Positions 7,476 to 29,196 of a stretch of 64,000 nt of DNA are shown here, in pieces. Source of the stretch: Thermoanaerobaculia bacterium (GTDB lineage Bacteria > Acidobacteriota > Thermoanaerobaculia > UBA5066); assembly GCA_963816185.1 (NCBI GenBank), contig CAWFJJ010000024.1, forward strand, positions 320,001-384,000, in the 5' to 3' direction. A model generated the notes under the pieces. It had not been told where the DNA came from and made no database searches. It saw only the letters and a list, made by a program, of their open reading frames with translations. A program made the translations under genes and the position numbers. The stretch's first letter is position 1; every line of letters starts with the position of its first letter.

Positions 7476-10130
7476 ATGCGAAATCGCCTCGCGCTCGCCG
7501 CCGCCGTGACGCTCCTCACGCCCGCCGCGCACGTCCTCGCGCAGTCTCCGGCGTCCGCGTACACGTGGACGGTTCCCGGGACCGTGAACGTCTCCGGCCT
7601 CAACGGGACGAAGTTCGTCTCGGACCTCGCGATCACGAACCCCGGCGCGGCGCCCGCCGTTGCGATCCTCTCGCTGGTGCCCGCCAACGGGACGGGGCAG
7701 TCCCTCCAGCTTCTCGCCCCGGGCCAGACGCTCGTCGTGCGCAACGTCCTCCAGCAGCTCTGGGGAGCGAGCGGCGCGGCGGCGACCATCGTCACTTCCA
7801 CGGGACCGCTCTTGATCCGGGCGCGGACCTACAACACGGCGGCGTCGGGGACATACGGTGTTGCGCTTCCTGTCATCGCGGACGACCGGTTCCTGTTTCC
7901 CGGTGTTTCGGCCGACAGCCTCTGGATCGCGCAGTCGGCGGACGGTTCGACGGGCTACCGAACGAACGTCGCCGTCGTCTTCCCGGATGCGGATGGCGGC
8001 GACGCGACGGTGACGGTGTACGACGCGAACGGCAACGTCGCCGGCTCGCAGGACTTCTCGATGAGCTCGGCGGGCTTCCAGCAGTTCGCGGTGGGCGCGT
8101 TCGCCGGCGCGGTCGCCGTCGGGCGCGCACGGATCGCCGTGACGCGCGGCCGCGCGACGGCGTATGCCGTCGTGGTCGACAACGTCACGGGCGATTCGTC
8201 GCTGTTCGCATTCGAGGACCTGCCCGCGGGGCGGCAGGACGTCCTCGTCAACGGCGTGGCGCGCGCCGGCGGACGCAACAACACGTTCTTCCGGACGGAC
8301 GCGCGGATCTACAACCCTTCGGGCGCCGATGTGTCCGTGGCTGTGGCGTTCCACGCGAACCAGAACGCGAACCCGAGCCCGGCCACCGCGACTTTCGACG
8401 TGCCGGCGGGGCAGGTCCTGGACGTCGTGGACGTCCTTCAGGCGCTCCTCGGTCTTCCCGTCGGTTCCGCCGGGGCCCTGCGCTTCACGTCAGATGCTCC
8501 TGTCGCGATCCTCTGCCGGACGAGCAACGTCGACCCGAGCAGCGCGAAACCCGGCACGTTCGGGGCGCAGCAGAGGCCGACGCCCGTGCTCTCGTTCCTG
8601 TCGTCGGCCGACGCGGGGGCGGTCGTGACGGGGGTGCGACAGGGCACCGACTTCCGGACGAACGTCGGCTTCGCAGCGGGTGCGGACGGCGCGAGCTGGT
8701 CGCTCGCCCTGAAGAACTCCTCGGGAGCCGTCGTCGGGAACGCGTCGGGCTCGCTCGGGCCCTGGGGCTGGACGCAGCCGAACGTGCAGGACCTTTTCCC
8801 CACGACGACGATCCCCGACGACGCGATGCTGCAGGTAAACGTGACGTTGGGCAGCATGGATGTCTTCGACTCGTCCATCGACAACTCCTCGGGCGATCCC
8901 GTGGTCACGCCGATCATGCCGCTGCCCGTCTCAATTTCCTCCTCGGCCATGATCGGCCCGGCGGGCGGCTCGGTTCAGTCGAGCGACGGCCGCCTGAAGC
9001 TGAAGATCCCCGCGGGCGCGCTCGCGTCACCGACGGCGTTCACGGTCACGCCCTCCACGAACGGGGCGCCGGGAGGTCTCGGGTCCGGCTACCAGATTTC
9101 GCCGGGTGGCGTCGCGTTCGCACGGCCGGTCCGGCTCGTTTTCGCGTACTCGTACGACGACCAGAACGGCTCGGACCCCGGTTCGCTCGGAATCGCCTGG
9201 AACGGCGGTTCGGCGTGGTACACGGGAACGAACAGCGCGATCGACACCAAGGCGCGAACCGTCACGCTCGAGATTCCCGCCCTCGAGCTCGCGCTGCGCT
9301 CCGACGGAGGACGCGCACCCCTCGCGGCCGTGGACGTGTACAGCCCGTACGTTGCGCTCACGATGACGGGCCCCTCGATCGTCCTTCAAGGCGGGGGCGC
9401 GGACTTCACCGCGACGAGGGTGCAGCTCACGCCGCAGAGCACGGACGTCCTGCGCCTTGCGCCGGGTGCGCCGGTGGAATCTTTCGGCTACACCTGGTCC
9501 GCGGCCGCCGGGACTTTCGGGGCCGCCGGCTCCGGCGCAACCGGTCATTACACCGCGCCCGGATGCCCGCCTCCGGAACCGGTCGAGATCAAAGTCGACG
9601 TCCACGACGCGGCCTCGGGAGGCCCGATCGGCGTCCTGACGAAGAGCGTGCGGATCCTCTGGAAGGACTGGAAGTACATCATCACGGAGGCCGTTGCCGA
9701 CGCCGAGACGTGCTCCCTCGGATTCGCCTTGAACTACAGCTCCCAGGCCGAGGCGACGTTCTCGCTGGATGCGAACGGCGCCGCGACCGGGGTCACGACG
9801 CGGACCGTGTTCGTCACCAACAGCGTCACGGTCTGTCCCGGAACGCCCCTCTGCTCAGCGAAGCAGTCCGACCCGGACCCCGTGAAGATCACCAGCCTCA
9901 CGGTCGGGTACCTCAGGGGTGACCTCGTTTTCACCGCGGAGTTCACCCATATGAGCGGCACGGACCTCACGATCACGTGCAAGGATGGAACCGGCCAGAC
10001 GAAGCATCATTCGCCGGGAGTAGACGACTCGTCTCTCGGCGTGCCCGTCGACGCCTACGCGGGCGGGCAGAACGCGACGTCGAACGGCGAGGTCACCGAG
10101 GAGTTCCATCCCGTGCGGGGAGGCTGCTGA
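7476..10130 (+). CDS. Large secreted beta-rich hypothetical protein (duplicated N-terminal module, ZU5-like segment)
   Basis: RBS AGGAG, signal peptide; repeated motifs FVSDLAITNPG/FRTDARIYNPS and YRTNVAV/FRTNVGF; IGPAGGSV..LKIPAGAL. Confidence 0.72.
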   Translation: MRNRLALAAAVTLLTPAAHVLAQSPASAYTWTVPGTVNVSGLNGTKFVSDLAITNPGAAPAVAILSLVPANGTGQSLQLLAPGQTLVVRNVLQQLWGASGAAATIVTSTGPLLIRARTYNTAASGTYGVALPVIADDRFLFPGVSADSLWIAQSADGSTGYRTNVAVVFPDADGGDATVTVYDANGNVAGSQDFSMSSAGFQQFAVGAFAGAVAVGRARIAVTRGRATAYAVVVDNVTGDSSLFAFEDLPAGRQDVLVNGVARAGGRNNTFFRTDARIYNPSGADVSVAVAFHANQNANPSPATATFDVPAGQVLDVVDVLQALLGLPVGSAGALRFTSDAPVAILCRTSNVDPSSAKPGTFGAQQRPTPVLSFLSSADAGAVVTGVRQGTDFRTNVGFAAGADGASWSLALKNSSGAVVGNASGSLGPWGWTQPNVQDLFPTTTIPDDAMLQVNVTLGSMDVFDSSIDNSSGDPVVTPIMPLPVSISSSAMIGPAGGSVQSSDGRLKLKIPAGALASPTAFTVTPSTNGAPGGLGSGYQISPGGVAFARPVRLVFAYSYDDQNGSDPGSLGIAWNGGSAWYTGTNSAIDTKARTVTLEIPALELALRSDGGRAPLAAVDVYSPYVALTMTGPSIVLQGGGADFTATRVQLTPQSTDVLRLAPGAPVESFGYTWSAAAGTFGAAGSGATGHYTAPGCPPPEPVEIKVDVHDAASGGPIGVLTKSVRILWKDWKYIITEAVADAETCSLGFALNYSSQAEATFSLDANGAATGVTTRTVFVTNSVTVCPGTPLCSAKQSDPDPVKITSLTVGYLRGDLVFTAEFTHMSGTDLTITCKDGTGQTKHHSPGVDDSSLGVPVDAYAGGQNATSNGEVTEEFHPVRGGC

Positions 10131-10225
10131 CAAGGTTTCCGGCGGCTGGAACGAGTCTCTTCGACGCCTTCGTGCCTGACATAGAATCGGCCTCGTGACG
10201 CTTTTCACAAGCGTCAGGGGTACCC

Positions 10226-10911
<686 letters not shown>

Positions 10912-10915
<4 letters not shown>

Positions 10916-12657
10916 GCGCGACTCTCGCCAAGCCCCCCGTCCCGTCCTCCATTTCGTTCGGCCCGGTCCTCGAGCAGAACCTCGGCGGCCGCGTGACCGT
11001 CGAGCCGCGTCCGGCGTTCGACATCCCGACGCTCGTCACGGATGCGGCGACGCTGAAGGAGGCCGCTCTTTTCCTCAGGGACGACCCTTCGACGGCGTAC
11101 GACCTCTTCCTCGACCTCGCCTCCGTCGACCGCTCGAAGCTCCCGGGCGATCAGGCTCCCAAAGACGGAACCCGCTTCCAGGCGAACTACATCCTCTACT
11201 CGACGAAGCGGAACGAGCACCTCAGGCTGCGCGTGAACCTGCCCGCGAAGGACCCGGCCGCACCCTCTCTCGTCGGCGTCTGGCCCGCCGCGAACTGGTT
11301 CGAGCGCGAGGCCTGGGACCTCATGGGGATCCGCTTCGACGGCCACCCGAACCTCCAGCGCCTTCTCACGCACAACGGGTTCGTCGGCCACGCGCTGCGC
11401 AAGGACTACGACAAGAAACAGCGCTGGCTCTGCACCGAGGAGGACCTCCTCCAGACGGAGCTCGCCGCGAAGACGGACGACCCGGCCGACATGTTCGAGA
11501 CGATGACGCTGAACTTCGGGCCGTCCCACCCGGCGACGCACGGCACGCTCCGCGTCGTGATGCGCGTGGACGGCGAGAAGATCGTCGCGGCCGAGTCCGA
11601 GTGCGGATACCTGCACCGCTGCTTCGAGGGAATGTCCGAGACGCATACGTGGGTGCAGGTCGTGCCGTACACCGACCGGCTCAACTACTGCTCGCCCATG
11701 ATCAACGGCAACGGCTACGTGCGCGCCGTCGAGCAGATGCTCGGCGTCGAGGTCCCGCCGCGCGCGAAGGCCGCGCGCACGGTGCTGAACGAGTTCTCGA
11801 GGATCATGGACCATCTCGTCTGCATCGCGGCGAACCTCGTCGACATCGGCGCGCTCACGAACTACTGGTACGCGTACCAGCCGCGCGAGGAGATCTACGG
11901 CCTTCTCGAGGCCTGCTGCGGCGCGCGCCTCACGTCCTCGTACGCGCGCATCGGCGGGCTCGCGAAGGACGTGCCGGAGAACTTCGTCGAGTGGTCGCGG
12001 TCGCTCCTGCCCACGATCCGCGACCGGATGGCCGACGTCGACCGCCTCGTCACGAAGAACAAGATCGTCTGGAACAGGTTGCGCGGCACGGGCGTCGTCT
12101 CGAAGGAGCAGGCTCTCGCCTGGGGCTTCACGGGGCCGTGCCTGAGGGCTTCCGGCGTCGCGTACGACGTCCGCAAGGACAAGCCGTACGAGATGTACGG
12201 CGACGTGGACTTCGACGTCCCGATCTCGACGGACGGCGACAACTTCGCGCGCTACCTCGTGAGGATGGAGGAGATGCGGCAGTCGATGCGGATCATCGAG
12301 CAGCTCGTCGCGCGGTTCCCGAAGGGGCCGATCAACTCGGACGACTACCGCGTCATCCTGCCGCCCAAGGAGATGGTCTACAACGAGATGGAGGCGCTCA
12401 TCTACCACTTCAAGCTCGTCTTCGAGGGCGTGAAGGTGCCGCCGGGGGAGATCTACTCGTACACCGAGGGCGGCAACGGCGAGCTGGGCTTCTCGCTCGT
12501 ATCGGACGGCAGCGGCTTCCCCTACCGGATCAAGGTGAGGCCGCCGTGCTTCCCGCTCTTCGCGGCGTTCGAGAAGATCATCAAGGGCAGCATGGTGTCC
12601 GACGCCGTCGCCACGCTCGGCTTGCTGAACATCATCGCCGGCGAGCTGGACCGGTAG
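10912..12657 (+). CDS. nuoCD: NADH-quinone oxidoreductase fused subunit C/D
   Basis: NuoC motifs [14 protein letters not shown] and GHALRKDY; NuoD motifs [28 protein letters not shown]; no NiFe CxxC pairs. Confidence 0.93.
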
Positions 12658-12668
12658 GCAGGTAGCAC

Positions 12669-13331
12669 ATGGCCGCACGCGTCGTCACCGTCAACGCTCC
12701 AGCCCCCACGCTCCTCGAGAGTCTCTATCTCCCGGAGATCTTCAAGGGCCTCGCGCGCACGCTCTCTCACCTCGTGAAGAACCTCGCGAACATCAAGGGC
12801 ATGCCGACGATCCAGTACCCCGAGATGCGCCGGAACTACTCCGGGCGCTTCCGCGGGCGCCACATCCTGAAGACGCGCGAGGACGGCACGCTCAAGTGCG
12901 TGGCCTGCTACATGTGCGAGACGGCGTGCCCGGCCGAGTGCATTTACATCGAGGCGGGCGAGCACCCGGTCCTCGCGTACGAGAAGTACCCGACGAAGTT
13001 CGAGATCGACATGCTGCGGTGCGTCTTCTGCGGATACTGCGTGGACGCGTGCCCGAAGGACGCGATCTGGATGACGAAGGACTACGAGCTGTCCTTCTTC
13101 GACCGCAAGAGCGCCGTCCTCGGCATCCCCGAGCTCACGGAAAAACCGTCCGACACTGGCCCGGACGGCCCCGGCTACGGCTACCGGCCGTACGAGGGCG
13201 AGAACCCCATGAAGAAGGCGGGGGAGTTCGAGCCCTCGGGCCTCGCGCTCCTGCCGGCCCTCGCGGAGCGCGGCCTGGCGATCAACCGCATGCCGCCCCC
13301 GCCGCCGCCGCCGCCGGCGAAGGCGGGCTGA
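12669..13331 (+). CDS. nuoI: NADH-quinone oxidoreductase subunit I
   Basis: TIQYPE, FRGRH and two [4Fe-4S] motifs CVACYMCETACP, CVFCGYCVDACP. Confidence 0.93.
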   Translation: MAARVVTVNAPAPTLLESLYLPEIFKGLARTLSHLVKNLANIKGMPTIQYPEMRRNYSGRFRGRHILKTREDGTLKCVACYMCETACPAECIYIEAGEHPVLAYEKYPTKFEIDMLRCVFCGYCVDACPKDAIWMTKDYELSFFDRKSAVLGIPELTEKPSDTGPDGPGYGYRPYEGENPMKKAGEFEPSGLALLPALAERGLAINRMPPPPPPPPAKAG

Positions 13332-13342
13332 GGGCGCACCAA

Positions 13343-13438
13343 AGTGCCCAGATGTCTCCACCACGCGGTGGGCACATCTGCACATTTGCGGAAGAGTGCC
13401 CAAATGTGTCCGCCGTTGCCGTCTAATACTAGTTAGGC
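13343..13438 (+). other. Putative attI-like integron recombination site
   Basis: GTCTAAT-ACTA-GTTAGGC (13421-13438) is an L-box-like heptamer plus a GTTRRRY core; upstream direct repeats AGTGCCCAGATGT (13343-13355) and AGTGCCCAAATGT (13395-13407); the core is the exact complement of GCCTAAC at 15385. Confidence 0.55.
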
Positions 13439-13447
13439 TGCGCAACG

Positions 13448-13975
13448 ATGGCCGAAGCCCTCCTTCTCTCAAAGCTTCAGGTGGCGCGGCGGCAACTCGA
13501 GGCAACCGTCGGACTCTTTTTCCGGGACGGCGACCCCGTTGCAATCCATACCCTCACAGCAGCGGCGTACGAAGTACTACATGACCTCACCAAGATCTCC
13601 GGGCAGCACGCGATGCTCAAGGCCCGGGTCGAAGAGGTAGTCAAGCCCGAGCATGTCAAGGCGTTCCGGCTCAAGCTGAACGAGGCTGAAAACTTTTTCA
13701 AGCATGCGGCTCGTGACCCGGCCGCCCTCCTGCGGTTCTACCCCGGTCAAACCGAAATCCTCCTGTTCGACGCCGTCAGAACGTATCGCCTCATCTCGGG
13801 CAAGCCGGCCCCCCTTCTCACGGCGTTCGAGTACTGGTGCGTTCTTCACGCCCCCGATCTTTTCTTGCCGCTGGCGGGCGCCGCCGCTTTTCAAGGCCTC
13901 TTTCCAAGCCTCCTTTCAATGTCCCGCTCGGAGTTCCTCGAATCTCTCCTTCCAGGTCTCCCTGTGAATGGCTGA
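13448..13975 (+). CDS. Gene-cassette-encoded hypothetical protein, HEPN-like; last codons displaced by IS481
   Basis: Helical 175-aa ORF with ENFFKHA motif, starting 10 nt after the core site; removing the IS gives ...PVNGSAA-TAA with the stop inside the attC R'' box. Confidence 0.7.
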   Translation: MAEALLLSKLQVARRQLEATVGLFFRDGDPVAIHTLTAAAYEVLHDLTKISGQHAMLKARVEEVVKPEHVKAFRLKLNEAENFFKHAARDPAALLRFYPGQTEILLFDAVRTYRLISGKPAPLLTAFEYWCVLHAPDLFLPLAGAAAFQGLFPSLLSMSRSEFLESLLPGLPVNG

Positions 13976-15375
13976 ACGGTCGGGCACATAGGTAACACTT
14001 TAGTCCAGGCACATGGGTAACACTTATCAACAGTTACCTCGTCGTCGTCGTGCTGTGGAGATCGTGGAAATCTTCTTGCGTAGAGCTCTCAGCCCCGCGC
14101 CCAGTGCGGCCGCCGCGATGCCAAGGCCGGTGTTCATAGAAGGCTGCATAGAGTTTCTTGTCGCGCTCGTCGAAGCGCCCCAGCAGTAGCGAACCGAAGT
14201 ACAGGTTCCAGATGCCGTCGTCGACCTCCTCGAGCCCGACGTACTCGTCGATCAGGGGGTGGCTGACGCTGAGCCAGCCCGTCTTCCAGCGGATCCCGCC
14301 GTTGCGGCTGACGCGCCTGACCTCGAAGTGGCCCGGGTACTCGATGGGTGCGAGCTTGGACGGGAACGTGCGCAGTGAAGGACGGTAAAGATCGGCGGGC
14401 CGTTTCATGCCGATGCTTTCGTGGGGCCGCTCGGTGTTGAACTCCAGCTGGAAGGCGTCGAAGCGTTTCTGCTGGCCTCTGAGGTCGCGCCCCACGGGGT
14501 GAGTCGTCGCCCGCTTGAGCGTGCGATGCATCCTCTCGTGCGAGCCGTTCTGCTCGGGGTGGGCCGGCTGCGTGAGCTCGGGCCTGATTCCCAGCTTGAT
14601 CCACCACACCGAGAGGCGCGAGAGCCGCCCCAGGCCCGTCGACGCAAACGGAACCCCGTTGTCGCTTCGGATCGCATCGGGCAATCCATGTTCGCGAAAC
14701 AGCCGTTCGAAGCTTTTCTTCACGCCGTCCGCCTTCGTCGAGAGCAGCCCTCTGCACCCGATGAGGTATCGGCTATAGAGGTCGCTCACCGTCAGCGGGT
14801 AGCAGTAGATCCCGTCGCCCGTCAGGAACTCGCCCTTGAAGTCCGTGGCCCACAGCGCATTCGCCTTCTCAGCCACCGTCATCGGACGTCCCGGATGCCC
14901 GACGGGCCGTCTGCGGCGCCGCGCCTTCACGAGCCCGTGTCTCTTGAGAATCGCCGCCACCGTGCTTCGTGCCGGCCAGCTCGTCTCCTGGTCGCGCGTC
15001 GCCAGCACGTGGACGATCTTCTTCGGGCCCCAGTCGGGGTGTTTGCGTCGAAACTCAGTGATGGCCGACTCGACATCCCCAGCGGTCTGATTCGGGTGCC
15101 AGTGCGGCCGGCGCACCTGGTCCTCGAGCCCTGCCACACCTTCCGCCTCGAATCTCTCGATCCACTTGTAGAGCGTCTTGCGGCTCACGCCGTGCCGCTC
15201 GGCCAGAAACCTCACCGTGAAAAGCCCGCTTCGATAATCCACCAGGCTCTGCATCCTCTCGGCCACGGGTGTCGTCTCCTTCCAGGGCATCGGGCGTTTC
15301 TCCTCCCGCCCGAACTCTGCCCTGTGTCACCCATGTGCCTGGACCGTTCTGTAACCCATGTGCCCGGACTGAACC
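13973..15375 (-). mobile_element. IS481-family insertion sequence
   Basis: Two tandem GGCACAT(A/G)GGTAACA sites at 13983-14022, two inverted copies at 15325-15344 and 15350-15369; flanking GGC at 13970-13972 and 15376-15378; exact ends uncertain by a few bases. Confidence 0.82.
14034..15290 (-). CDS. IS481-family DDE transposase
   Basis: MPWKE start, HTH (GVSRKTLYKW), integrase core WATDFKG, IRSDNG, QNGSHERMHRTLK. Confidence 0.92.
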   Translation of the reverse strand: MPWKETTPVAERMQSLVDYRSGLFTVRFLAERHGVSRKTLYKWIERFEAEGVAGLEDQVRRPHWHPNQTAGDVESAITEFRRKHPDWGPKKIVHVLATRDQETSWPARSTVAAILKRHGLVKARRRRRPVGHPGRPMTVAEKANALWATDFKGEFLTGDGIYCYPLTVSDLYSRYLIGCRGLLSTKADGVKKSFERLFREHGLPDAIRSDNGVPFASTGLGRLSRLSVWWIKLGIRPELTQPAHPEQNGSHERMHRTLKRATTHPVGRDLRGQQKRFDAFQLEFNTERPHESIGMKRPADLYRPSLRTFPSKLAPIEYPGHFEVRRVSRNGGIRWKTGWLSVSHPLIDEYVGLEEVDDGIWNLYFGSLLLGRFDERDKKLYAAFYEHRPWHRGGRTGRGAESSTQEDFHDLHSTTTTR

Positions 15376-15426
15376 GGCAGCGCAGCCTAACAACGCGCTG
15401 CAGCGGACTTCCATGAGAAGGCCGGT

Positions 15427-15707
15427 TGTTGTCAAGAGAGGGCGGAATCGCCGGTGGGAATCCCTGGGCTCGAGTGTGTCGCCGCGCTTCCATTCGCACT
15501 CGTATGGGCCGCGTCTTGTCGGCCTGGTGCATGAGGGGGTCTAGTCCGCAAGGGCGCTGCAATCTCGCTACCGGTGTTCCGCCCCGGGCCGAAGTCCGTG
15601 GGGACCGGAGTCCGCTGCGCAGTCGCCCTGACGGGGCGTTGACTCGAATTTGGGATAGCCACGATTGAACGCGTCCTCTCGCTGGTTCCTTTCTTTTTTG
15701 CCCTGTG
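15427..15707 (-). ncRNA. Predicted bridge/seek RNA of IS110 element A (boundaries approximate)
   Basis: Stem 15551-15560/15619-15629 encloses an internal loop with attC-matching segments (15608-15618, 15564-15571) around an inner hairpin with a minus-strand C-UUCG-G loop (15589-15594). Confidence 0.72.
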
Positions 15708-16874
15708 TCAGGCCGCTGCGGCCGTGCCGTGAGGCGCAGGGGCCTTGCGTAGCGGCTCGTAGACCTCCGCGGTCCGCCACAGCCGATGCAGCAACACCGC
15801 GAGTTTTCGTGCGATGGCAATGACCGCCCGTTTCTTCGCATTGCGCTCTCCTCGGGCTGACAGCGCCAGGCCGGATCGTCTGAGGTCGCAGTCCGGCCCG
15901 AATGGCCCGAGGACGTACTGCGCCGACTGAACCAGAAGCCGGCGCAGGAAGTGGTCCCCCTCTTTCGTGATGCGCAGCTGCGGGTCCGAATCACCGCTCT
16001 GACTTCGCGAAGGTACGAGCCCAAGGTACGCCCCGACGGCCCGGCTCTTCCGGAATCGACCCGGATCCTCCAGCGTCAGGACGTAGGCCAGCGCCACGAT
16101 CGGGCCCACTCCTCCCACCTGCCTCAGCAACGCCGTCTCCGGGTACTTCTTCTTCCCCAGTTCTAAGATGCGCTTGTCGAGCGCCAGGATCTGTCTGGAC
16201 ACGACTTCGATCGTCGTCAGGACGTTCGACAACGCTTCGCGTACCTCCTCGGGAATCTCGCCCACCGCCTGGATGGAGAACGTCCGGGTCGAGCACTTCC
16301 TCAGGCGGTGTCCCGTCGCTTTGACCGCCCCGCGGACGTGGTTGACGAGCTGCGTCCGCGTCCTCACCAGCACATCGCGCGAGCGCAGGACGGCCATGTC
16401 CTGTGCGACGCTCTCGGGACGGTGCTCCACGGGGTACAGAAGCTTCGGGTCCAGCCGGGCGATCCGGGCCAGGGCCTCGGCATCCACACGGTCCTGCTTC
16501 CCACGGTTCTGGTAGATCAGCCGGGTCTTTCGGGGGTTGGCCACCAGCACCTCGTGCCCTAGCTCTTTCAGAAGGCGGCTCACCCACGGGGAATGCGTTC
16601 CCACCTCCAGCGCGATTCGCATTCCCACCGGCCCTTCGAAACGCTTCCGGATCCCTTCCAGAGTCGTCTGGGCCCTTCCACGCTCGACGACCATCCCATC
16701 TTCATCGAGCACGCAAAAATGGCTCGTCCGATCCCCCAGGTCTATTCCGACGGTCCACGTCGGACAAAAAGCCGGAAGGACGTTCACCACTTTGCCCGAC
16801 GTCAATCTCGCCGTCCCATCACTCCTCGTCGCCGTCCTCTCGCTCCCGCTCGTCCCGGTGCTACGCTTCCTCAC
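15708..16874 (-). CDS. IS110-family recombinase/transposase A
   Basis: DEDD RuvC-like motifs VGIDLG, ALEVG, KQDRVDA; C-terminal GVGP and YLGLVPSRSQSG; GTG at 16874 follows an AAGGGAG RBS. Confidence 0.93.
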   Translation of the reverse strand: MRKRSTGTSGSERTATRSDGTARLTSGKVVNVLPAFCPTWTVGIDLGDRTSHFCVLDEDGMVVERGRAQTTLEGIRKRFEGPVGMRIALEVGTHSPWVSRLLKELGHEVLVANPRKTRLIYQNRGKQDRVDAEALARIARLDPKLLYPVEHRPESVAQDMAVLRSRDVLVRTRTQLVNHVRGAVKATGHRLRKCSTRTFSIQAVGEIPEEVREALSNVLTTIEVVSRQILALDKRILELGKKKYPETALLRQVGGVGPIVALAYVLTLEDPGRFRKSRAVGAYLGLVPSRSQSGDSDPQLRITKEGDHFLRRLLVQSAQYVLGPFGPDCDLRRSGLALSARGERNAKKRAVIAIARKLAVLLHRLWRTAEVYEPLRKAPAPHGTAAAA

Positions 16875-16997
16875 GGCCGGTCTCCCTTCTGGGCCTCGAG
16901 CCCGCAATGTCCTTGCAGCGAATTTTCCGACTGCGCCGGGGAGACCGGCCTTCTCATCCCATCTCGCTACGCTCGCCGCTGAGCTTGCCCATGAAGA

Positions 16998-17204
16998 TTC
17001 CTGTCAAGCCCCTCGCTGAATAATTTCTTGCTTGCGCCGCACGAAACAGCCGGCCACTCGTCCATTCGGGGTCAGAGCCCCACGTATCACTTCAGCGGAT
17101 GGCGCCCCAAACGATATCCCGGGCTCTGCGGCCCAATGCTCAGCAGCAGGGTCATCCACCCGATTCTCGGCAAGATTTGCGGCGTGCTTTTCCTTTCTTC
17201 GTCT
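16998..17204 (-). ncRNA. Predicted bridge/seek RNA of IS110 element B (boundaries approximate)
   Basis: Target-matching GCTCAGC (17138-17144) and CGATATC (17112-17118) flank hairpin GGGC/GCCC (17121-17134) inside outer stem GGATGGC/GTCATCC (17097-17103/17151-17157). Confidence 0.62.
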
Positions 17205-18308
17205 TCAGCGGCTCTTTGCCGCTTGAGGTTTCAGTCGATAGATCCGGGCATCCTTTACCGCCGTGCGCGGCTCGTGGGCTTTCAGCATCGATCGATCAAA
17301 GCTCGTCTTGTCTCGAAGCATCGCGTAAAGAACCCGACAGAGACGATGCGCCACGGCGGTGACAGCGCGGCGTGTCCCCAGGCGCAACGTGAGAGTTCTC
17401 AGAAACGGATTCAGTGGGCTGCTTTGCCGCCTGGCCGTGTGAGCCGCCTGCACGAGCATGGCCCGCAGCTCGGGCGAACCCGTCCTGGTGATGTGGCCCT
17501 GGCGGTTCGTTTCGCCCGACTGGTAGGTTTGCGGGACGAGCCCCGCGTAGCTCGCCGCATGCTTGGCGGTCGGAAAGCGCGTGGCGTCTGAGAAGACAGC
17601 GATTGCCGTCAGCGCCACGATCTCCCCGACTCCTGGAACGGTTTTGAGTCTCTCGAGGTCTTCGCCGAAGGCGGCGTGCTGGCTTTCGAGGCTCTTCTCG
17701 CACGCGTTCTTCTGCTCGAGGGCAGTCTGCCAGGCGCGGTGGTGAAGCTCGACGTAGCTCCTTACCTGCGGATGTGGAACCAGGGCCCCAAGAAGGCGCT
17801 GCCACGCGCGAAGGGTCCCGAGATGCTGGCGGCTGAGCTCGGAGAGCCCCGCGCTCCGGAGCATCTTTTTCGCCGCGTTGATCTGCGCCGTCCCGAGACG
17901 CACGAAATGGCGGCGCCTCGAGAGGGTATTTCTAAGGTGCTCGATCTTCTCCGGCGGCACATGCACGATCGACCGGTAGATTCCACGCCGCAGGCCTTCG
18001 CACAGTTCAACGGCGTCTCTCGTGTCGCTTTTCTGCCGGGGCCGATGGGCTTTGATCCTGACCTCTCGCGCATCCACCACGACGGGTGAAAGCCCCAGCT
18101 CACTGAGCTTTCGCGCCGCAAAAAACGCCATCGTCCCCGATTCGAGAGCCACCAGCGTCGAGGCGCGAAGCTTGAAACGTAGCCGCAACGAGGAAAACCC
18201 TTCCACAGAGGTCGGCACCTCGCCTCGTCCCAGCTCCTCTCCCCGCTCGTTCTGAATCATGAAAACGCTCGACTTGCTGTGAACGTCCAGTCCCACATAA
18301 GATTTCAT
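17205..18308 (-). CDS. IS110-family recombinase/transposase B
   Basis: YVGLDVH, ALESG, KSDTRDA, TVPGVG, YAGLVPQTYQSG; RBS GGAGG before ATG 18308. Confidence 0.93.
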   Translation of the reverse strand: MKSYVGLDVHSKSSVFMIQNERGEELGRGEVPTSVEGFSSLRLRFKLRASTLVALESGTMAFFAARKLSELGLSPVVVDAREVRIKAHRPRQKSDTRDAVELCEGLRRGIYRSIVHVPPEKIEHLRNTLSRRRHFVRLGTAQINAAKKMLRSAGLSELSRQHLGTLRAWQRLLGALVPHPQVRSYVELHHRAWQTALEQKNACEKSLESQHAAFGEDLERLKTVPGVGEIVALTAIAVFSDATRFPTAKHAASYAGLVPQTYQSGETNRQGHITRTGSPELRAMLVQAAHTARRQSSPLNPFLRTLTLRLGTRRAVTAVAHRLCRVLYAMLRDKTSFDRSMLKAHEPRTAVKDARIYRLKPQAAKSR

Positions 18309-18470
18309 CGGGCTGTCCTCCCTTGCTTGGGGCACCTCCTCGGAGGTTGACCCCGTTAAACTTGTGGCCCGATTCTTCGGTGACCACGTCGGCGAGGACA
18401 GCCCTTTTCTCGTCTTCATTGAAACGATATCGTTAGACGCCGGAAGGTAAAGCAGAGCTAGAATCTCCTC

Positions 18471-18692
18471 ATGTCGCTCGAACTGACCGCCGTCTTTCAG
18501 CAGGTGCCTGAAGGCTTCATCGCCTTTATCGAGGAGCTTCCGGGTGCGAACTCGCAGGGAGCCACGCTCGAGGAGGCCCGTTCAAACCTGCACGAGGCGG
18601 TAACGCTGGTTCTCGAGGCTAATCGCGCCCTCAGCGAGCAGGCGCTCGCGAACGCCTCGGTCATTAGGGAGCGTTTCAAGATCTCGGCGTGA
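18471..18692 (+). CDS. hicB: HicB-family antitoxin (short form, no obvious DNA-binding domain)
   Basis: GFIAFIEELPGANSQGATLEEARSNLHEAV. Confidence 0.88.
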   Translation: MSLELTAVFQQVPEGFIAFIEELPGANSQGATLEEARSNLHEAVTLVLEANRALSEQALANASVIRERFKISA

Positions 18693-18880
18693 AGCGCGCC
18701 GAGCTCATTCGTCACCTCGAACGCCATGGCTGCCAGCTCCTTCGCGAAGGCGGCTCGCATACCGTGTACGTCAATCGGCCCGAGCGCAAGGTATCTACCA
18801 TTCCCCGGCATCGCGAGCTCAACGAATTCCTTGCCGTCAAGATCTGCAAGGACCTCGGCGTCCCGAAGCCCGGCGTCTAA
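18689..18880 (+). CDS. hicA: HicA-family mRNA interferase toxin
   Basis: MKRAELIRHLERHGC..REGGSHTVY..IPRHRE; GTGA overlap with hicB; TAA stop lies in the attC2 R'' box. Confidence 0.9.
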   Translation: MKRAELIRHLERHGCQLLREGGSHTVYVNRPERKVSTIPRHRELNEFLAVKICKDLGVPKPGV

Positions 18881-18918
18881 CAACGCGCTGCAGCGGACTC
18901 GTCGTCAGTCGCTGCGCT
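18875..18918 (+). other. attC site 2, left half only (truncated)
   Basis: GTCTAAC AACGC GCTGCAGC GGACTCG matches the attC1 left arm; GTCTAAC complements core GTTAGAC at 18432; no L'/R' arm follows. Confidence 0.75.
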
Positions 18919-18975
18919 TAACTCGCTGCAATCTCTCTCCCAGGATCGCTCAAACCCAGATGGAGGTCGAAGACC

Positions 18976-21009
18976 ATGAGCCGGACCCATCGAGCGTTGA
19001 ACAATTGGATTGTGTTGGCTACGGTAATGGTGGTGGCAAGATACAGCAATACGTCGCAGGCTGCACCGCCAGTGGTGCCGGAGAGGGCATTACGCATCCA
19101 TGGCCCGTTCACAGTGGGCGCTGCGGACCTGAATCCGGCGAACGGTGGCGCTCCGACCAGCCCCAATGCCCCGAGGCCGTCGGGCGGCGGCACGCATCAC
19201 CATCCCGACGACGGGACCGGAGAGCCTCCCGGTCCTCAGACCCCTCCGGCGACGTCCGCGTTCGTCGATGTCGCGGGGTTGGGGGGCATCGACCCCGGGA
19301 TTGCGGCGGGTGACCGCTACGTCCTCGTCTGCGACAACGCGACCGGGCTGGCCTTCTACGACAAGACCGGGAAGCTGCTGGGTCCGAAGTCTCCCGGCTC
19401 CCCGTTTGCAAATCCCTTCTCGGTGTTCTCGCTGTTCTCTCAAGTAAAGGCGGACATCGACCCGCAGTTGAACTATCCCCCGGGTCTCCCACCCGGCTTC
19501 AACGTCGCCCACGGCAATGGCATCAGCGCCTATGGCGACGTCCGGGTGATGTTCGATCCATATCGCAAGCGGTTCTGGATCTACGCCATGGCGAAGAACG
19601 AGATCCCCACCGACTCGCCAAGTGTCATCAAGTTCCCGGCCATCAAGATGGCTCGGCGGGACAAGGCGGCCGTCGCGGTCTCGCTCACGGAGGACCCCCG
19701 GGACGGCTTCCTCACCTACTGGTGGAACAATACGGTTCACAACGGCGAGTCCAACGTGCCAGCGGGCGGCCCCGATCCGGTGTTCAAGACCTCGGGCGAG
19801 GGCGCCGACTATCCGAGCCTCGGGATCTCGCCCAAGTATTTCCTGGCGACGATCGGGGTGAACCGGAGGGATCCCACCTTCCAGACCAAAACGGACAAGC
19901 AGGTTAAAGCCTGGCTAGCCTGCCAGACCACATTCGTGGCGGACGGCCAGACCTTCGACTATTGCGGCCCGTTCTACATCCACATGATGGTAGTCGACGC
20001 CGAAGCCCTGGTCGGCGCATGCAAGGGCGGCAAGCCGGGCAAGCCATGCGCAGACGGGCGGTCGTTCGGGCTGTTCGTGAACGCCCGGAATTTCGTGACG
20101 GATCGGACCGACAGCGGGGACTTCTACACGAACATGGCGAGGGGCGTGAAGCCCGTCGTCATGCACGGTCTGCCGCCGACCGACCACGCAACAGACGCCT
20201 ATTTCGCGAACAACTTCATTGAGAGGGGCGGCGACCCGGCAACGAAGGCCAAGCTCGCGGACCTCAAGGCGAAGGTCAAGGATCTCCAGCGCCAGATTGC
20301 CGATGCCCCGCCCGCCCGGGCGGCCGACCTCTCGGCAAAGATCCTGGAGAAGGACGTCGAGATCCTCAAGCTGGAGAAGGAGCTCGGGCCGAAGTACTAC
20401 GTGGTCCTGTGGTCCCTCGAGGGAAACAGCCTGACCCCGGCCGCGTATCCGATCCGGCCTTTTGCGATCGACGGGTACAACGACTGGAAATTCGTCCTGA
20501 ACGCCTGCTTCAGGAAAGGGAACCTGTATGCCGCGTTCCAGGACTGCTTCCATGATCCCGATGGGAATTGTCTGCAGGCGATCCGAGCCATCCGCGTCAA
20601 CACCCTGAGCGGCAAGACGGAGGTCGACCGCACCTTCGGGCTGAACAATCCGATCGATGACAAGCCCACCGACCGCTTCTCCTACGAATTCCCTGCGATC
20701 GAGGCGAACAAGCACGGGGATATGGTGCTCGTCTACGCCCGCTCGTCCGCGACCCTCAAGAGGTCCCAGGAGGTACGTTTCAGCGTGTGGTACCACAATG
20801 AGTCGGATATCCGCCCCAGCCGGCTTCTCCATGCCGGCGAGGCGCCCTATTCGGCAACCGAATTCGGGAGAGGTACCGATACGGCAGGGATCAGCGTCGA
20901 CCCATCCGATGACGAGTCGATCTGGATTGCGCAGATCTTCGCGGCCAAGGAGGGGTCGGGGAATGGAACGAATCGGATCGCGTTCGGCAAGGTCTTCGGG
21001 ATGCCGTAA
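18976..21009 (+). CDS. Secreted hypothetical protein, probable beta-propeller with a coiled-coil insertion
   Basis: RBS GGAGG, signal-like N-terminus, motifs shared with the 37392-40013 protein. Confidence 0.7.
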   Translation: MSRTHRALNNWIVLATVMVVARYSNTSQAAPPVVPERALRIHGPFTVGAADLNPANGGAPTSPNAPRPSGGGTHHHPDDGTGEPPGPQTPPATSAFVDVAGLGGIDPGIAAGDRYVLVCDNATGLAFYDKTGKLLGPKSPGSPFANPFSVFSLFSQVKADIDPQLNYPPGLPPGFNVAHGNGISAYGDVRVMFDPYRKRFWIYAMAKNEIPTDSPSVIKFPAIKMARRDKAAVAVSLTEDPRDGFLTYWWNNTVHNGESNVPAGGPDPVFKTSGEGADYPSLGISPKYFLATIGVNRRDPTFQTKTDKQVKAWLACQTTFVADGQTFDYCGPFYIHMMVVDAEALVGACKGGKPGKPCADGRSFGLFVNARNFVTDRTDSGDFYTNMARGVKPVVMHGLPPTDHATDAYFANNFIERGGDPATKAKLADLKAKVKDLQRQIADAPPARAADLSAKILEKDVEILKLEKELGPKYYVVLWSLEGNSLTPAAYPIRPFAIDGYNDWKFVLNACFRKGNLYAAFQDCFHDPDGNCLQAIRAIRVNTLSGKTEVDRTFGLNNPIDDKPTDRFSYEFPAIEANKHGDMVLVYARSSATLKRSQEVRFSVWYHNESDIRPSRLLHAGEAPYSATEFGRGTDTAGISVDPSDDESIWIAQIFAAKEGSGNGTNRIAFGKVFGMP

Positions 21010-21061
21010 TGAATGTGTCCCATGCGGAACCCGCCAAGCGGCGGACTCCGCCGAGGCCGTC

Positions 21062-21940
21062 GTGACACGCGCACGTGTGCAACCCGTCCTGGTGACGGGA
21101 GCCACCGGCCGAGTCGGGCGCGCGGTGGTCGCCGAACTGCTGGGCATGGGCGTGCCGGTGCGCGCGCTCACGCGCCGACCGGCGACGGCAGGGCTGCCGG
21201 CGACCGTCGAGGTCGTGGCGGGCGACCTCACCGTGCCCGACTCGCTCGACTCGGTGCTGCAGGGCGTAGGTGCGGTCTTCCTCCTCTGGACCGCGCCGCC
21301 GGGCACCGCTCCTGCCGTCGTCGAGCGTCTCGCGTCGCACACGCGGCGCGTCGTCTTTCTCTCCTCGCCGCACCAGACACCGCACCCGTTCTTCCAGCAG
21401 CCGAACCCCATGGCTCGCTTCCACGCCGAAGTCGAGCGCCTGATCGCGGCCGCCGGACTCCAGTCGACGTTCATCCGGCCCGGGATGTTCGCATCGAACG
21501 CGCAGTTCTGGTGGGGGTCCGCGATCCGTGACGGCGACGTCGTCCGGTGGCCCTACGGCGCGGCCGAGACGGCACCGATCGACGAGCGCGACATCGCGGC
21601 CGTGGCGGCGCGCGCCCTGTTTGGGGACGGGCACACGGGCGGCGATTACGTCCTCACGGGCCCCGAGTCGCTGAGCCAGGCGGAGCAGGTGAGCGTGATC
21701 GGGGCCGCCCTCGGGCGCCGGATCCGGTTCGAGGAACTATCGCCCGAAGAGTTCCGGCGTGAGACGGCGGGTCGCTGGCCGGGTCCGGTCGTGGACATGC
21801 TGCTCGCCGCGTGGGGTGCGACGATCGGACGCCCGGCGTTCGTGACTTCCACCGTGTCCGACGTCGTCGGATCGCCGCCGCGGACTTTTCGCCAGTGGGT
21901 CGCCGATCACGCCGACGCGTTTCGGGGCCCCAGACCATGA
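21062..21940 (+). CDS. NmrA-like NAD(P)H-binding protein (atypical SDR)
   Basis: VLVTGATGRVG, VRALTR, FIRPGMF, PIDERDIA, LTGPESLS; start could be 21062 or 21077. Confidence 0.85.
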   Translation: MTRARVQPVLVTGATGRVGRAVVAELLGMGVPVRALTRRPATAGLPATVEVVAGDLTVPDSLDSVLQGVGAVFLLWTAPPGTAPAVVERLASHTRRVVFLSSPHQTPHPFFQQPNPMARFHAEVERLIAAAGLQSTFIRPGMFASNAQFWWGSAIRDGDVVRWPYGAAETAPIDERDIAAVAARALFGDGHTGGDYVLTGPESLSQAEQVSVIGAALGRRIRFEELSPEEFRRETAGRWPGPVVDMLLAAWGATIGRPAFVTSTVSDVVGSPPRTFRQWVADHADAFRGPRP

Positions 21941-21956
21941 CTCCCGGCTTGCGGGG

Positions 21957-22934
21957 ATGAACCGCATGAAGGCAATCGTCCGTCACGGCTACGGCCCACC
22001 GGACGTCCTCCGGTGCGAGGACGTCGAGAAGCCGGGCGCCGGGAACGACGAAGTCCTGATCCGGGTTCGCGCGGCCTCTCTCAATCCGCTCGACTGGCAT
22101 TACATGAGGGGCTCGCCGTACATCGTTCGCGCCATGACAGGACTGCGCGAACCAAAGGTCCCACGCCTCGGGGCGGACCTCGCCGGTCAGGTCGAGGCGG
22201 TCGGCAGGAGCGTGACGCGGTTCAAGCCGGGCGACGAGGTTTACGGCGCGGGCGCGGGCGCCTTCGCCGAGTACGCGTGTGCCCGCGAGAACAGAGTCGC
22301 GCCGAAACCCTCCAACCTCTCGTTCGAGCAGGCGGCGGCCGTGCCGGTGGCGGGGTGCACCGCCCTCCAGGCCCTTCGGGAAAAGGGGCGGATTCAGCCG
22401 GGGCAGAAGGTCTTGGTCAACGGCGCGGCGGGAGGCGTGGGGACGTTCGCCGTGCAGATCGCCGGGTCCTTCGGCGCGGACGTGACCGGAGTGTGCAGCA
22501 CGAGAAACGCCGACATGGTCCGATCCATCGGCGCGGGCCATGTCGTCGATTACACCCGCGAGGATTTCACCGAGGGCGACCGGCCATACGACCTGATTCT
22601 CGATTGCATGGGGAACCACCCCTTCTCGGCCTTGAGGCGCGCCATGAGTCCGGCGGGGATCTACGTCGTGGTCGGGGGGTCCGACACCGGATGGATGGGC
22701 GGCCTGGCCCTCGATCTCCTGAGGACCGCGCGGTCCCGGTTTATGAACCGGAAGTTCGTCGTGATGCTGGCGCGGGTCGACGGCGCGAGTCTCGCCGTTC
22801 TGACCGAGCTGATCGAGGCGAAGAAGGTCACACCCGTCATCGACAGGTCCTACGCGTTGAGCGAAGTCCCCGAAGGTATACGCTATCTGGAAGAGGGGCA
22901 CGCCCGGGGGAAAGTCGTCATCACCGTGACGTGA
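21957..22934 (+). CDS. NAD(P)-dependent medium-chain dehydrogenase / quinone oxidoreductase-like
   Basis: YGPPDVL, AASLNPLDW, VLVNGAAGGVGTFAVQIA, GHARGKVVI. Confidence 0.9.
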   Translation: MNRMKAIVRHGYGPPDVLRCEDVEKPGAGNDEVLIRVRAASLNPLDWHYMRGSPYIVRAMTGLREPKVPRLGADLAGQVEAVGRSVTRFKPGDEVYGAGAGAFAEYACARENRVAPKPSNLSFEQAAAVPVAGCTALQALREKGRIQPGQKVLVNGAAGGVGTFAVQIAGSFGADVTGVCSTRNADMVRSIGAGHVVDYTREDFTEGDRPYDLILDCMGNHPFSALRRAMSPAGIYVVVGGSDTGWMGGLALDLLRTARSRFMNRKFVVMLARVDGASLAVLTELIEAKKVTPVIDRSYALSEVPEGIRYLEEGHARGKVVITVT

Positions 22935-23055
22935 TCGGCAACCAAGGTTTCGCCGGGTTCGGCGCCCGTCTTGCTCGGTACGGGGAGCATCTGCTGGGCG
23001 GAATCGATCTCCGTGCGCTGGGCTATGCTGACCGGCAACGCTTCGGAGGGAATCG

Positions 23056-23442
23056 ATGCCACCGACACGCAAGAACGGCAAGATCTGCTATCTCGAGATT
23101 CCCGCGTTCGACGTTCATCGCTCGATCGACTTCTACCGAACGGTCTTCGGCTGGAAGATCAGGCAGCGCACGGACGGCCGCACGGCCTTCGACGACGCCG
23201 TCGGCGAAGTCAGCGGCACGTGGGTGACCGGCCGGCCACCCTCCCGGGAACCGGGTCTGCTTCTCTACGTCATGGTCGACAGCGTCGAAGCGACCGCCGA
23301 AGCGGTCATCGCGAACGGGGGCGAGATCGTGCAGCCGATCGGTGCGGACGCACCCGAGGTCACGGCCCGGTTTCGTGATCCTGCAGGCAACGTCATCGGT
23401 CTGTACCAGGAACCCGGCAAGTCGGCGTCGGAGGCACCGTGA
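23056..23442 (+). CDS. VOC/glyoxalase family protein
   Basis: ICYLEIPA, FYRTVFGW, ARFRDPAGNVIGLYQ; RBS GGAGG. Confidence 0.88.
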   Translation: MPPTRKNGKICYLEIPAFDVHRSIDFYRTVFGWKIRQRTDGRTAFDDAVGEVSGTWVTGRPPSREPGLLLYVMVDSVEATAEAVIANGGEIVQPIGADAPEVTARFRDPAGNVIGLYQEPGKSASEAP

Positions 23443-23786
23443 TCGTTCCGGCCGTGTTGGTTCATTGCGGCTTCGGTCTGCTCCTGACGGTGTTCTCGCT
23501 GCCTCTCGTGTTTCGTCTCGTCCCCATGAACCGCGCCTACGGCATCCGGATACCGGAGGCCTTCGGCTCCGACGCCCGCTGGTACGACATCAATGCTTAT
23601 GGTGGCCGCCTCTTCTTCGTCTACGGTGTCCTTTTGACAAGTCTCGGTTTCCTCGCCCGCGACCTCGCGCCCGCCAAGACCAGCCTCTGGTCCCCCGTCT
23701 TCATCGTCGGGCCGCTCCTCGTGGCGCTTGCCCTTCTCCCTCCCATCCGTTCTTACGCCCGCCGTCGCGTTCAGCAGGGGCCTTGA
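23439..23786 (+). CDS. SdpI-family membrane protein
   Basis: Three TM segments with MNRAYGIR...SDARWYDINAYGGR. Confidence 0.72.
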   Translation: MIVPAVLVHCGFGLLLTVFSLPLVFRLVPMNRAYGIRIPEAFGSDARWYDINAYGGRLFFVYGVLLTSLGFLARDLAPAKTSLWSPVFIVGPLLVALALLPPIRSYARRRVQQGP

Positions 23787-23802
23787 TACCGACTCCCTTC
23801 GG

Positions 23803-24396: not shown

Positions 24397-24423
24397 CGGA
24401 ATTCGTCGCGGCGAAGCCCGCGT

Positions 24424-26152: not shown

Positions 26153-26162
26153 CTCCGCGAGG

Positions 26163-26615: not shown

Positions 26616-26673
26616 GTCCCGATCGCAAATTATCCGCCCGATTCCGCCGGGCGGCTGGAATTTCGAGGGACCC

Positions 26674-29155: not shown

Positions 29156-29196
29156 GGGGGCGTATTGTGCCGGAACCAAGAACCGGTTCTTGACGC

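Follow-up and report, generated by a model that had tools for sequence, protein, structure and literature searches.

Can one integron recombination site be hit twice by insertion sequences (ISs) that each choose their target precisely, and what do such elements recognise? The question is raised by a locus at positions 15385–18438 of the window, i.e., the whole stretch of 64,000 nucleotides analysed here (assembly GCA_963816185.1, contig CAWFJJ010000024.1, positions 320,001–384,000 of the forward strand), where two different IS1111-type elements, A and B, lie 23 bp apart in one 60-bp attC site. The window belongs to a Thermoanaerobaculia metagenome-assembled genome (MAG; hereafter the host genome, G000) of 5.1 Mb in 30 contigs, with a completeness of 94.9%, from an Acidobacteriota of soil or sediment. 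The placement in Thermoanaerobaculia agrees with the closest named homologues of a hydrolase encoded on its chromosome. We regard it as highly probable that a single attC was hit by separate site-specific insertions of two unrelated IS1111-type elements, each directed in the style of a seekRNA or bridge RNA. The occupied site consists of five parts (here and below, ^ marks a point of insertion, and attC positions are counted on the cassette strand of the 60-bp site):

15385–15409, plus strand: attC 5' part, 25 bp, with the R'' box GCCTAAC, a spacer and the 5' arm of the L stem up to GGACT^; nhmmer match to model positions 2–28
15410–16964, minus strand: element A, a complete IS1111-type IS of 1555 bp; Pfam PF01548 and PF02371 (DEDD_Tnp_IS110 and Transposase_20) above cut-offs
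16965–16987, plus strand: attC middle, 23 bp between A and B, with the apex and the 3' arm of the L stem
16988–18426, minus strand: element B, a complete IS1111-type IS of 1439 bp; Pfam PF01548 and PF02371 (DEDD_Tnp_IS110 and Transposase_20) above cut-offs
18427–18438, plus strand: attC 3' part, 12 bp, comprising what is left of the L'-R' spacer plus the R' box GTTAGAC; in a congener (G429:C7), this sequence also comes after the uninterrupted attC

Joining 15385–15409, 16965–16987 and 18427–18438 yields a 60-bp site with the cores GCCTAAC ... GTTAGAC. It is 58/60 identical to an intact copy elsewhere in the host genome (G000:C29:452094–452153) and near-identical to 28 aligned sites in the integron array of a congener, G362; its 5' part (15385–15409) has identical counterparts in intact attC sites. 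The original prediction, made from the sequence of the window, was that excision of both elements would restore a complete attC, with A in the central loop and B in the L'-R' spacer. Its coordinates are exact: A is inserted between positions 25 and 26 in the apex (GGACT^CGCTAC) and B between 48 and 49 in the L'-R' spacer (GAGCTTG^ATATC), i.e., in non-overlapping parts of one attC, and both are antisense to the cassettes. The unoccupied form of the same junction is found in the congener G429 (C7), where the attC preceding a hicBA toxin-antitoxin cassette is uninterrupted and the flanks match the window on both sides (...GCGCAGCCTAAC... and ...GTTAGACGCCGGAAGG...), with one base of difference in length, in the apex. 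Neither insertion produced a target-site duplication, as the site with A and B removed is colinear both with intact sites and with this empty junction.

The elements themselves are of the IS1111 type. IS1111 elements are characterised by subterminal repeats with 7-nt left and 3-nt right extensions, as oriented by the transposase gene (tnp), and by a long non-coding region (NCR) downstream of tnp (PMC11187229). Both A and B combine DEDD (RuvC-like) and Transposase_20 domains with 7-nt and 3-nt extensions, a longer NCR downstream of tnp and precise insertion. In A, the transposase open reading frame (ORF) occupies at most 15708–16907, with a start near 16769–16874 according to homologues, and the 3' NCR (15410–15707) is 298 nt long vs. 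57–195 nt upstream of the gene; the 13-bp subterminal inverted repeats are at 15413–15425 and 16945–16957 (plus strand), with terminal extensions of 3 nt and 7 nt. In B, the transposase of 367 aa is encoded at 17205–18308, with an NCR (16988–17204) of 217 nt downstream vs. 117 nt upstream, and 7-bp subterminal inverted repeats at 16991–16997 and 18413–18419 (plus strand), again with 3-nt and 7-nt extensions. The D, E, D..D and SG motifs are visible in the alignments of both transposases, TnpA and TnpB. Thus A and B share the orientation (minus strand) and the 3-nt/7-nt offset, and their transposases (28% protein identity) and repeats (13 vs. 7 bp) are clearly different, just as had been proposed.

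Is this choice of target a property of the elements or of one locus? Six full copies of B are present in the host genome (99.4–100% DNA identity), all of them at ...GAGCTTG^B^ATATCGTTAG and thus between ...GCCGCTGAGCTTG and ATATCGTTAGRC, including one that has just 13 nt of attC on the left. B-type ends from metagenomes (81–92% protein identity) follow the same rule, the left ones lying behind (C/A/G)TAAC(G/T)ATAT in 7/7 cases and the right ones before C(A/G)AG(C/T)TCAGCGGCGAG in 3/3. Element A is represented in the host genome by two full copies and two end remnants, and all of these are followed on the plus strand by the attC middle CGCT(A/G)CGCTCGCCGCTGAG or a close variant of it. In the only other full-length copy (G000:C7:315–1869; 99% DNA identity), a TGA stop interrupts the transposase frame and the last six right-end bases (in transposase sense) are altered, shortening the subterminal repeat; this copy is probably inactive. 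A-type relatives from Thermoanaerobaculia and Acidobacteriota MAGs (82–87% identity) have the right flank AGTCCGCTGCA in 6/6 cases, the left flank can be recognised as half of a short- or long-type attC in 4/6, and a 65% relative, present in seven copies in G422, occupies the same central position of a variant attC. The compilation of copies suggested along with the original prediction therefore returns the same two attC positions for other copies and close relatives of A and B, and not the insertions into unrelated sequences that would have spoken against it.

TnpA-like proteins (E≤1e-80) occur in 16/151 genomes of the class and TnpB-like proteins (E≤1e-60) in 4/301 genomes of the phylum, the latter set including the unpublished genome G152. 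When plasmids were searched with TnpB by tblastn, none of the 40 records listed exceeded ~33% identity, and none of the 5000 scored reached 60%. Both families also co-occur and decay elsewhere: in an Acidobacteriota MAG (L044; DAIOUV010000077.1, 640–2024), a decayed B-type left end of ~65 nt is situated in an attC 3' part, and the 3' half of an A-type element lies in another attC ~800 bp away.

What could direct each element to its own point within attC? The NCR of each element contains two candidate guide segments, described below in transposase orientation:

15608–15618, minus strand: A 5' guide segment, GCAGCGGACUC (RNA sense), 11 nt able to pair with positions -1 to +10 of the target's top strand at the A junction
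15564–15571, minus strand: A 3' guide segment, GUAGCGAG, 8 nt with the sequence of top-strand positions -6 to +2 of the target, the shared AG among them
17134–17144, minus strand: B 5' guide segment, GCUGAGCAUUG, able to pair with top-strand positions +1 to +10 on the right of the B junction when a one-nucleotide bulge is allowed
17110–17118, minus strand: B 3' guide segment, GAUAUC within GAUAUCGUU, after a short hairpin (GAUAUC(GUU)), with the sequence of top-strand positions -5 to +1

The 5' segment of A is invariant in 8/8 A-type elements, and a match of that length occurred in 6/5000 Markov-random NCRs; both A matches together occurred in none of the 5000. The two segments are separated by a hairpin and overlap on the AG that is common to the element start and the right flank, and this AG is shared by 8/8 A-family junctions examined (the window's own and those of seven relatives). 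In the consensus fold of eight A-type NCRs, the two segments are opposed across an internal loop closed by GGGCGACUGC/GCAGCGCCC, with the 5' guide on the 5' side. For B, the 3' segment is invariant in 4/4 NCRs of its type, and both matches together were seen in 7/5000 random NCRs. Cross-matches of at least 6 nt between the NCR of one element and the junction of the other were not found, except for a single 6-mer of the B NCR at the A junction. In the published seekRNAs of IS1111 elements, the top-strand match is located 5' of the bottom-strand match and the two overlap in the target (PMC11187229). The predicted order and overlap of the A segments fit this pattern, and those of B fit it less cleanly.

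The segments also change together with the target. The A-type element L040, located behind ...TGCCG^AG, has GUGCCGAG, and the B-type element L012 has GCUGAACUCUG beside the GAACTCG subtype of attC. L025, a 57% relative of B, targets an unrelated palindrome, CCTGCGC^CGGCGCAGG, and carries CCUGCGCC and UGCGCCG at the same places. Most of the scaffold segments of five A-family members with other targets (54–60% identity) match the junctions of their own elements, e.g., CCUCCUCCCU vs. ^AGGGAGGAGG in L070, UGUCAUCCU vs. ^AGGATGACA in L075, CCCAUAG vs. CCCAT^AG in L071, and GGGCCAG vs. GGGCC^AG in L069; as exceptions, the 5' segment in L069 and L071 and the 3' one in L070 match the flank in part only. 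Such natural co-variation of predicted guide and target is stronger evidence for guides. The idea of two independently programmed elements is thereby upheld in silico, each having junction-matching segments of its own that co-vary with the target in relatives. Two members of the A family from the same order (58–60% identity; L068 in G308:C2 and L070 in G311:C4) share a different target, ...TCTCCCGA(G/C)CG(G/A)(G/A)(A/G)(G/G)(C/G)G^AGGGAGGAGG..., which may represent another repeat family.

Taken together, a 60-bp attC of a chromosomal integron typical of the genus would have been struck separately by A and by B, with an IS481-family element at its 5' edge. Each IS1111-type element consists of a DEDD recombinase gene and a downstream non-coding region with a conserved scaffold, in which two short segments with a hairpin between them would base-pair with both target strands around the crossover. 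The programmed target of A would be the attC hairpin apex (bottom strand ...GTAGCG^AGTCCGCTGC, between 25 and 26 on the cassette strand) and that of B the L'-R' spacer (...AACGATAT^CAAGCTCAGC, between 48 and 49). The footprints, from about -6 to +10 each, would be read as linear sequence, and either insertion would spare the target of the other, so that both fit. That a guide RNA is made and guides the recombinase we infer from sequence, and the order in which A and B arrived is likewise inferred.

Several observations weigh against this reading. The evidence for B is weaker than that for A, since its 5' guide needs a one-nucleotide bulge and its longest exact match, GAUAUCGUU, overlaps the palindrome GATATC, which leaves the strand assignment of the 3' guide ambiguous. 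The guide of L022 differs from its flank at about three positions, and the 3' guide of L041 (CGCCGAG) matches neither of its two flanks. The predicted RNA folds of the A and B NCRs are not more stable than those of shuffled sequences (z = -0.79 and -0.51), the minimum-energy fold of the B region is without the internal-loop layout, and the expression of guide RNAs from either element is a prediction. In ISPa21, our positive control, there was no exact junction-spanning match of at least 6 nt, and only imperfect matches in the same layout were recognised by eye. The hairpin energy of the attC DNA is not better than that of shuffles either (z = -1.05 and -0.67). The left flanks of A-type relatives are unlike the common attC half in 3/6 cases, current mobility of A rests on one intact copy, and the 20-protein transposase tree considered below has few named references and long branches.

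The matches in the NCRs might instead be by-products of a palindromic, GC-rich site whose folded form is recognised by the proteins themselves. attC does act as a folded single strand for the integron integrase IntI, and the non-significant fold statistics and short B matches agree with this possibility. We nevertheless find it unlikely. Firstly, at the double site, a hairpin already split by 1.4–1.5 kb was still hit, which suggests recognition of linear sequence rather than of the folded site, and a B copy with 13 nt of attC on one side points the same way. Secondly, in family members that target something other than attC, matching segments occupy the same positions of the scaffold. Thirdly, RNA guidance has been experimentally demonstrated for the related ISKpn4, ISPst6, ISEc11 and ISPa11 (PMC11187229).

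If targets are read as linear sequence by RNA-guided elements, two insertions can be accommodated in one site. The 23-bp middle comprises the 6-nt left footprint of A and the 10-nt right footprint of B, 7 nt apart, and therefore neither insertion removes the target of the other. A second double site was found in the host genome (G000:C24:735393–735491), where a 72-nt A-type end (90% identical) is followed by a different attC middle of 27 bp and a copy of B; here a piece of an rve-type transposase gene cuts the A-type end short. If 4 A-type and 6 to 9 B-type insertions are placed independently over ~35 attC loci, about 0.7 to 1 double sites are to be expected; 2 are observed. Hence the double hit is at about chance level, and there is no sign of attraction between the elements or of special targeting.

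A double structure that arose once and was then copied, or one produced by homologous recombination between IS copies, would be in keeping with a genome rich in IS-mediated rearrangements (nested fragments are found at C24:730–742 kb and C25:603–613 kb) and with a locus that is itself a displaced array fragment. We judge this quite unlikely. Recombination between B copies cannot make an A-spacer-B junction unless one pre-exists, and the two double sites have spacers of different length (23 vs. 27 bp) and A-type ends of 90% identity, their B copies being 99.65% identical. Moreover, in metagenomic contigs of the Logan collection from two runs (X4, record 26, and X2), the attC middle is followed directly by an uninterrupted 3' part (ATATCGTTAG). 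The X4 contig (15387–16987) has A upstream and continues into ATATCGTTAG instead of B, so that an A-occupied, B-free site with this sequence exists in the X4 population; its flank is too short to assign the locus.

The same contigs bear on an artefactual origin of the A-23 bp-B arrangement by collapse or misjoining of repeats, as might be suspected for multi-copy elements in a MAG of 30 contigs and for Logan runs that are apparently short-read. Four runs (X1–X4) from a single study were used, of which X1 may be the source sample. A contig of X1 (record 7) covers 16726–18359, i.e., the end of A, the 23 bp and most of B, and contigs of X2 (record 12, 15420–17016) and X3 (record 18, 15592–17016) extend through A and all 23 bp to 29 nt of B, just below the 31-nt rule applied to the B side. 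These contigs were built apart from the MAG and span the junction, and the second locus has the same layout with a different spacer sequence; the mis-assembly that the original prediction had allowed for is accordingly very improbable, and we take the junction to be genuine. Joints between 15407 and 16963 in X2 and X4 were also considered as excision products and rejected, as their sides measure just 18–23 nt and they probably derive from other attC copies.

Is the repeat a true attC? In attC sites, an R'' box (RYYYAAC) and an R' box (GTTRRRY) lie ~60–140 bp apart. The family found in the host genome, with cores GCCTAAC ... GTTAGAC or GTTAGGC and length classes of 60 bp and ~83 bp, fits this inverse core motif. 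With a profile built from nine intact copies, 35 of the 55 listed matches had E<0.01, in clusters on 9 contigs of the host genome. In their consensus fold, the 28 aligned sites have an R stem of 5 bp, an unpaired 8-nt/5-nt spacer, a small apex and an L stem from which single bases bulge at two points, and thus form an imperfect palindrome whose spacer is unpaired and which has extrahelical bases; compensatory changes are seen in one pair. Within the window, a regular-expression search for paired R''/R' cores had no match and a scan at the Rfam gathering thresholds gave 0 matches; the window contains just the split site and one truncated site.

Further evidence comes from congeners. In G362, an integron integrase gene, intI (C10:28560–29501), scores 463 bits vs. 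a TIGR02249 cut-off of 265 and is followed by at least 33 same-strand sites (E<1e-10), 350–650 bp apart over ~18 kb (region 9700–29600, L057), the majority of them near-identical to the rebuilt 60-bp site. We conclude that the repeat is a true attC and that it belongs to a sedentary integron on the chromosome, of the family that is typical of this Thermoanaerobaculia genus. TIGR02249 matches above cut-off are found in 64/151 genomes of the class (including the unpublished G378 and G024), and 8/10 congeners have an intI match at E≤1e-40. Cassette arrays beside an integron integrase are present in the congeners G362 and G154, and the sites of the host genome form integrase-less clusters: the TIGR02249 search of this 94.9%-complete assembly gave Xer-like matches alone, all below the cut-off, with no intI, and no integron integrase is encoded in the window. 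That the repeat should be a chromosomal palindrome of the REP (repetitive extragenic palindrome) kind, as targeted by many IS110/IS1111 elements, gains something from this absence of intI, from the spread of sites over 9 contigs and from the non-significant hairpin energy, and is made highly improbable by the G362 array directly downstream of its integrase, by the RYYYAAC/GTTRRRY cores of the sites, by the small ORFs between them with stops in the R'' box and by the recurrence of hicBA in several congener arrays. Integrons are already on record in Acidobacteriota (PMC8618304), and a literature search on integrons in Thermoanaerobaculia returned nothing relevant. In both G362:C10 and G154:C13 (L056), intI is co-directional with the cassettes and the array lies downstream of its 3' end. 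Besides the two length classes (60 bp and ~83 bp), the attC sites form two subtypes at the B target, GAGCTTG and GAACTCG (L057, L022, L012, L042), and the guides of B sub-lineages fit either one or the other.

The surroundings of the double site contain three further features:

13973–15375, minus strand: IS481-family IS, transposase at 14034–15290; Pfam rve, rve_3, HTH_32 and LZ_Tnp_IS481
18471–18880, plus strand: hicBA toxin-antitoxin cassette, hicB at 18471–18692 and hicA at 18689–18880; Pfam HicA_toxin above cut-off, UPF0150/HicB_lk_antitox below the curated cut-off
18874–18918, plus strand: truncated long-type (~83-bp) attC, about 45 bp of which are left; end of a displaced cassette fragment

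The stop codon of hicA is inside the following R'' box. A 95% identical copy of the cassette is present in the attC array of G429:C7, and it occurs in five further places in congeners. Homology to the congener arrays ends at 18918, where a chromosomal gene region begins, and this position is the breakpoint of the displaced array fragment, judging by the sequence comparison. As the homology stops within the truncated long-type attC, the locus can be described as a displaced two-site array fragment among housekeeping genes.

The IS481-family element, overlooked in the first reading, has its right end 9 nt upstream of the split attC's R'' box. At five loci of the host genome, a gap of 7–11 nt separates the end of an IS481-type copy from the R'' box of an attC, and the sequence of this gap differs each time, which suggests a preference of this element for the outer 5' edge of attC. 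The Logan contigs break at 15375. The stop codon of an ORF at 13448–13975 is supplied by the first three bases of the IS481-family element; if the ggc flanking the element on both sides is a target duplication, this ORF would originally have stopped at the TAA within GCCTAAC, and the other full IS481-type copy has no such flanking repeat. Elsewhere in the host genome, two regions (G000:C24:730500–742200 and G000:C25:602500–613400) are IS graveyards inside attC clusters, with nested and truncated pieces of A, B, IS481-type elements and rve-type transposases, including a B truncated by an IS481-type element and two tandem B-occupied sites.

What do such insertions mean for the integron? An occupied attC is plausibly dead for the integron integrase; a loss of IntI function at IS-occupied sites has been suggested for ISPa21 (PMC11616780), and the same paper notes little experimental evidence for ISs disabling integron sites. 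The lock on cassettes envisaged in the original prediction would be of no consequence in the host genome, because no intI was found there. The host genome, lacking intI and with its array spread over 9 contigs, has 5.1 Mb vs. 3.4–4.8 Mb in most of the congeners listed, and in the clean array of at least 33 sites in G362, none of the 33 carries A, B or an IS481-type element. One may tentatively, and with somewhat more doubt than confidence, view attC as a landing pad colonised repeatedly and independently by RNA-guided DEDD recombinases, in at least three lineages and at three positions, with guides retuned to the GAGCTTG and GAACTCG subtypes; linear reading of the target would let these elements stack, and together with the edge-seeking IS481 elements they would break up the integron. 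The locus is a testable case of ISs disabling integron sites. Further, the stacked insertion is a natural experiment arguing for the reading of a short linear sequence even when the attC hairpin is destroyed, and the family-wide co-variation of predicted guides and targets offers a ready-made series of reprogrammed seekRNA/bridge RNA scaffolds.

As far as could be checked, the lineages, the host phylum, the target positions, the stacking and the natural guide series are new, and the mechanism is a known one. We found no account of two IS1111-type elements in one attC in a search that left the key 2008/2009 papers and their supplements uncovered, so that absence from print is not established; the same limit of coverage applies to our finding no attC-targeting lineage outside the proteobacterial group. 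The abstract of Tetu and Holmes from 2008 reportedly mentions arrays occupied by multiple elements. In the literature available to us, attC targeting by IS1111-type elements has hitherto been described for one proteobacterial clade and one end of attC. Here, two further unrelated lineages are added, in Acidobacteriota and at two other positions of the 60-bp site.

How, then, do A and B compare with known systems? The closest parallel is the IS1111-attC group (ISPa21, ISPst6, ISKpn4, ISPa25), which shares with them the IS1111-type ends, the long NCR downstream of tnp, the absence of target duplication, the insertion into attC antisense to the cassettes (PMC3001079, PMC11187229) and, as predicted for A and B, the layout of 5' guide, hairpin and 3' guide. 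The hosts are different, Proteobacteria vs. Acidobacteriota, and so is the point of insertion. According to the part of PMC3001079 that cites Tetu and Holmes (2008), IS1111-attC elements insert near the attC 5' end. This agrees with ISPa21, identified through PMC7232449 and located in the plasmid pME-1a, where it occupies the attC of the smr cassette, antisense to the cassettes and with the 3-nt/7-nt layout, between positions 14 and 15 of a 60-bp attC, i.e., in the R''-L'' spacer, vs. the apex for A (between 25 and 26) and the L'-R' spacer for B (between 48 and 49). ISPa21 is the sole named member of the group in our comparison. Its transposase has 27% identity to TnpA, 24% to TnpB and 30% to the transposase of IS4321, which targets transposon ends. 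In the tree of 20 proteins, suggested with the original prediction and run with ISPa21, three clades are separated: ISPa21 with IS4321 (100/99), the A family (100/99) and the B family (98/95). A tie to the IS1111-attC group thus stands as far as antisense insertion in attC is concerned and does not extend to the transposases; given 24–27% identity to ISPa21 and separate supported clades, A and B fall, by sequence, outside the IS1111-attC clade, although they would act in a similar way. Since the A and B families both include non-attC targets, attC targeting would have arisen by reprogramming at least three times.

More distant likenesses are seen with the IS110-group elements IS621 and ISCro4. 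Both TnpA and TnpB match the transposases of these two elements in PDB (E-values from 7e-9 to 1e-6), sharing the DEDD recombinase and the C-terminal Tnp domain, and the pairing of RNA segments with both target strands around a short shared core, predicted for A and B from their sequences, is also a common trait. In contrast to A and B, the RNA of the IS110 group is located upstream of tnp and the order of its target matches is reversed (PMC11187229, PMC11208160). Finally, group IIC-attC introns also insert into attC antisense to cassette transcription (PMC3001079), whereas they are retroelements, consisting of a ribozyme and a reverse transcriptase rather than a DEDD recombinase, and are absent from this locus.

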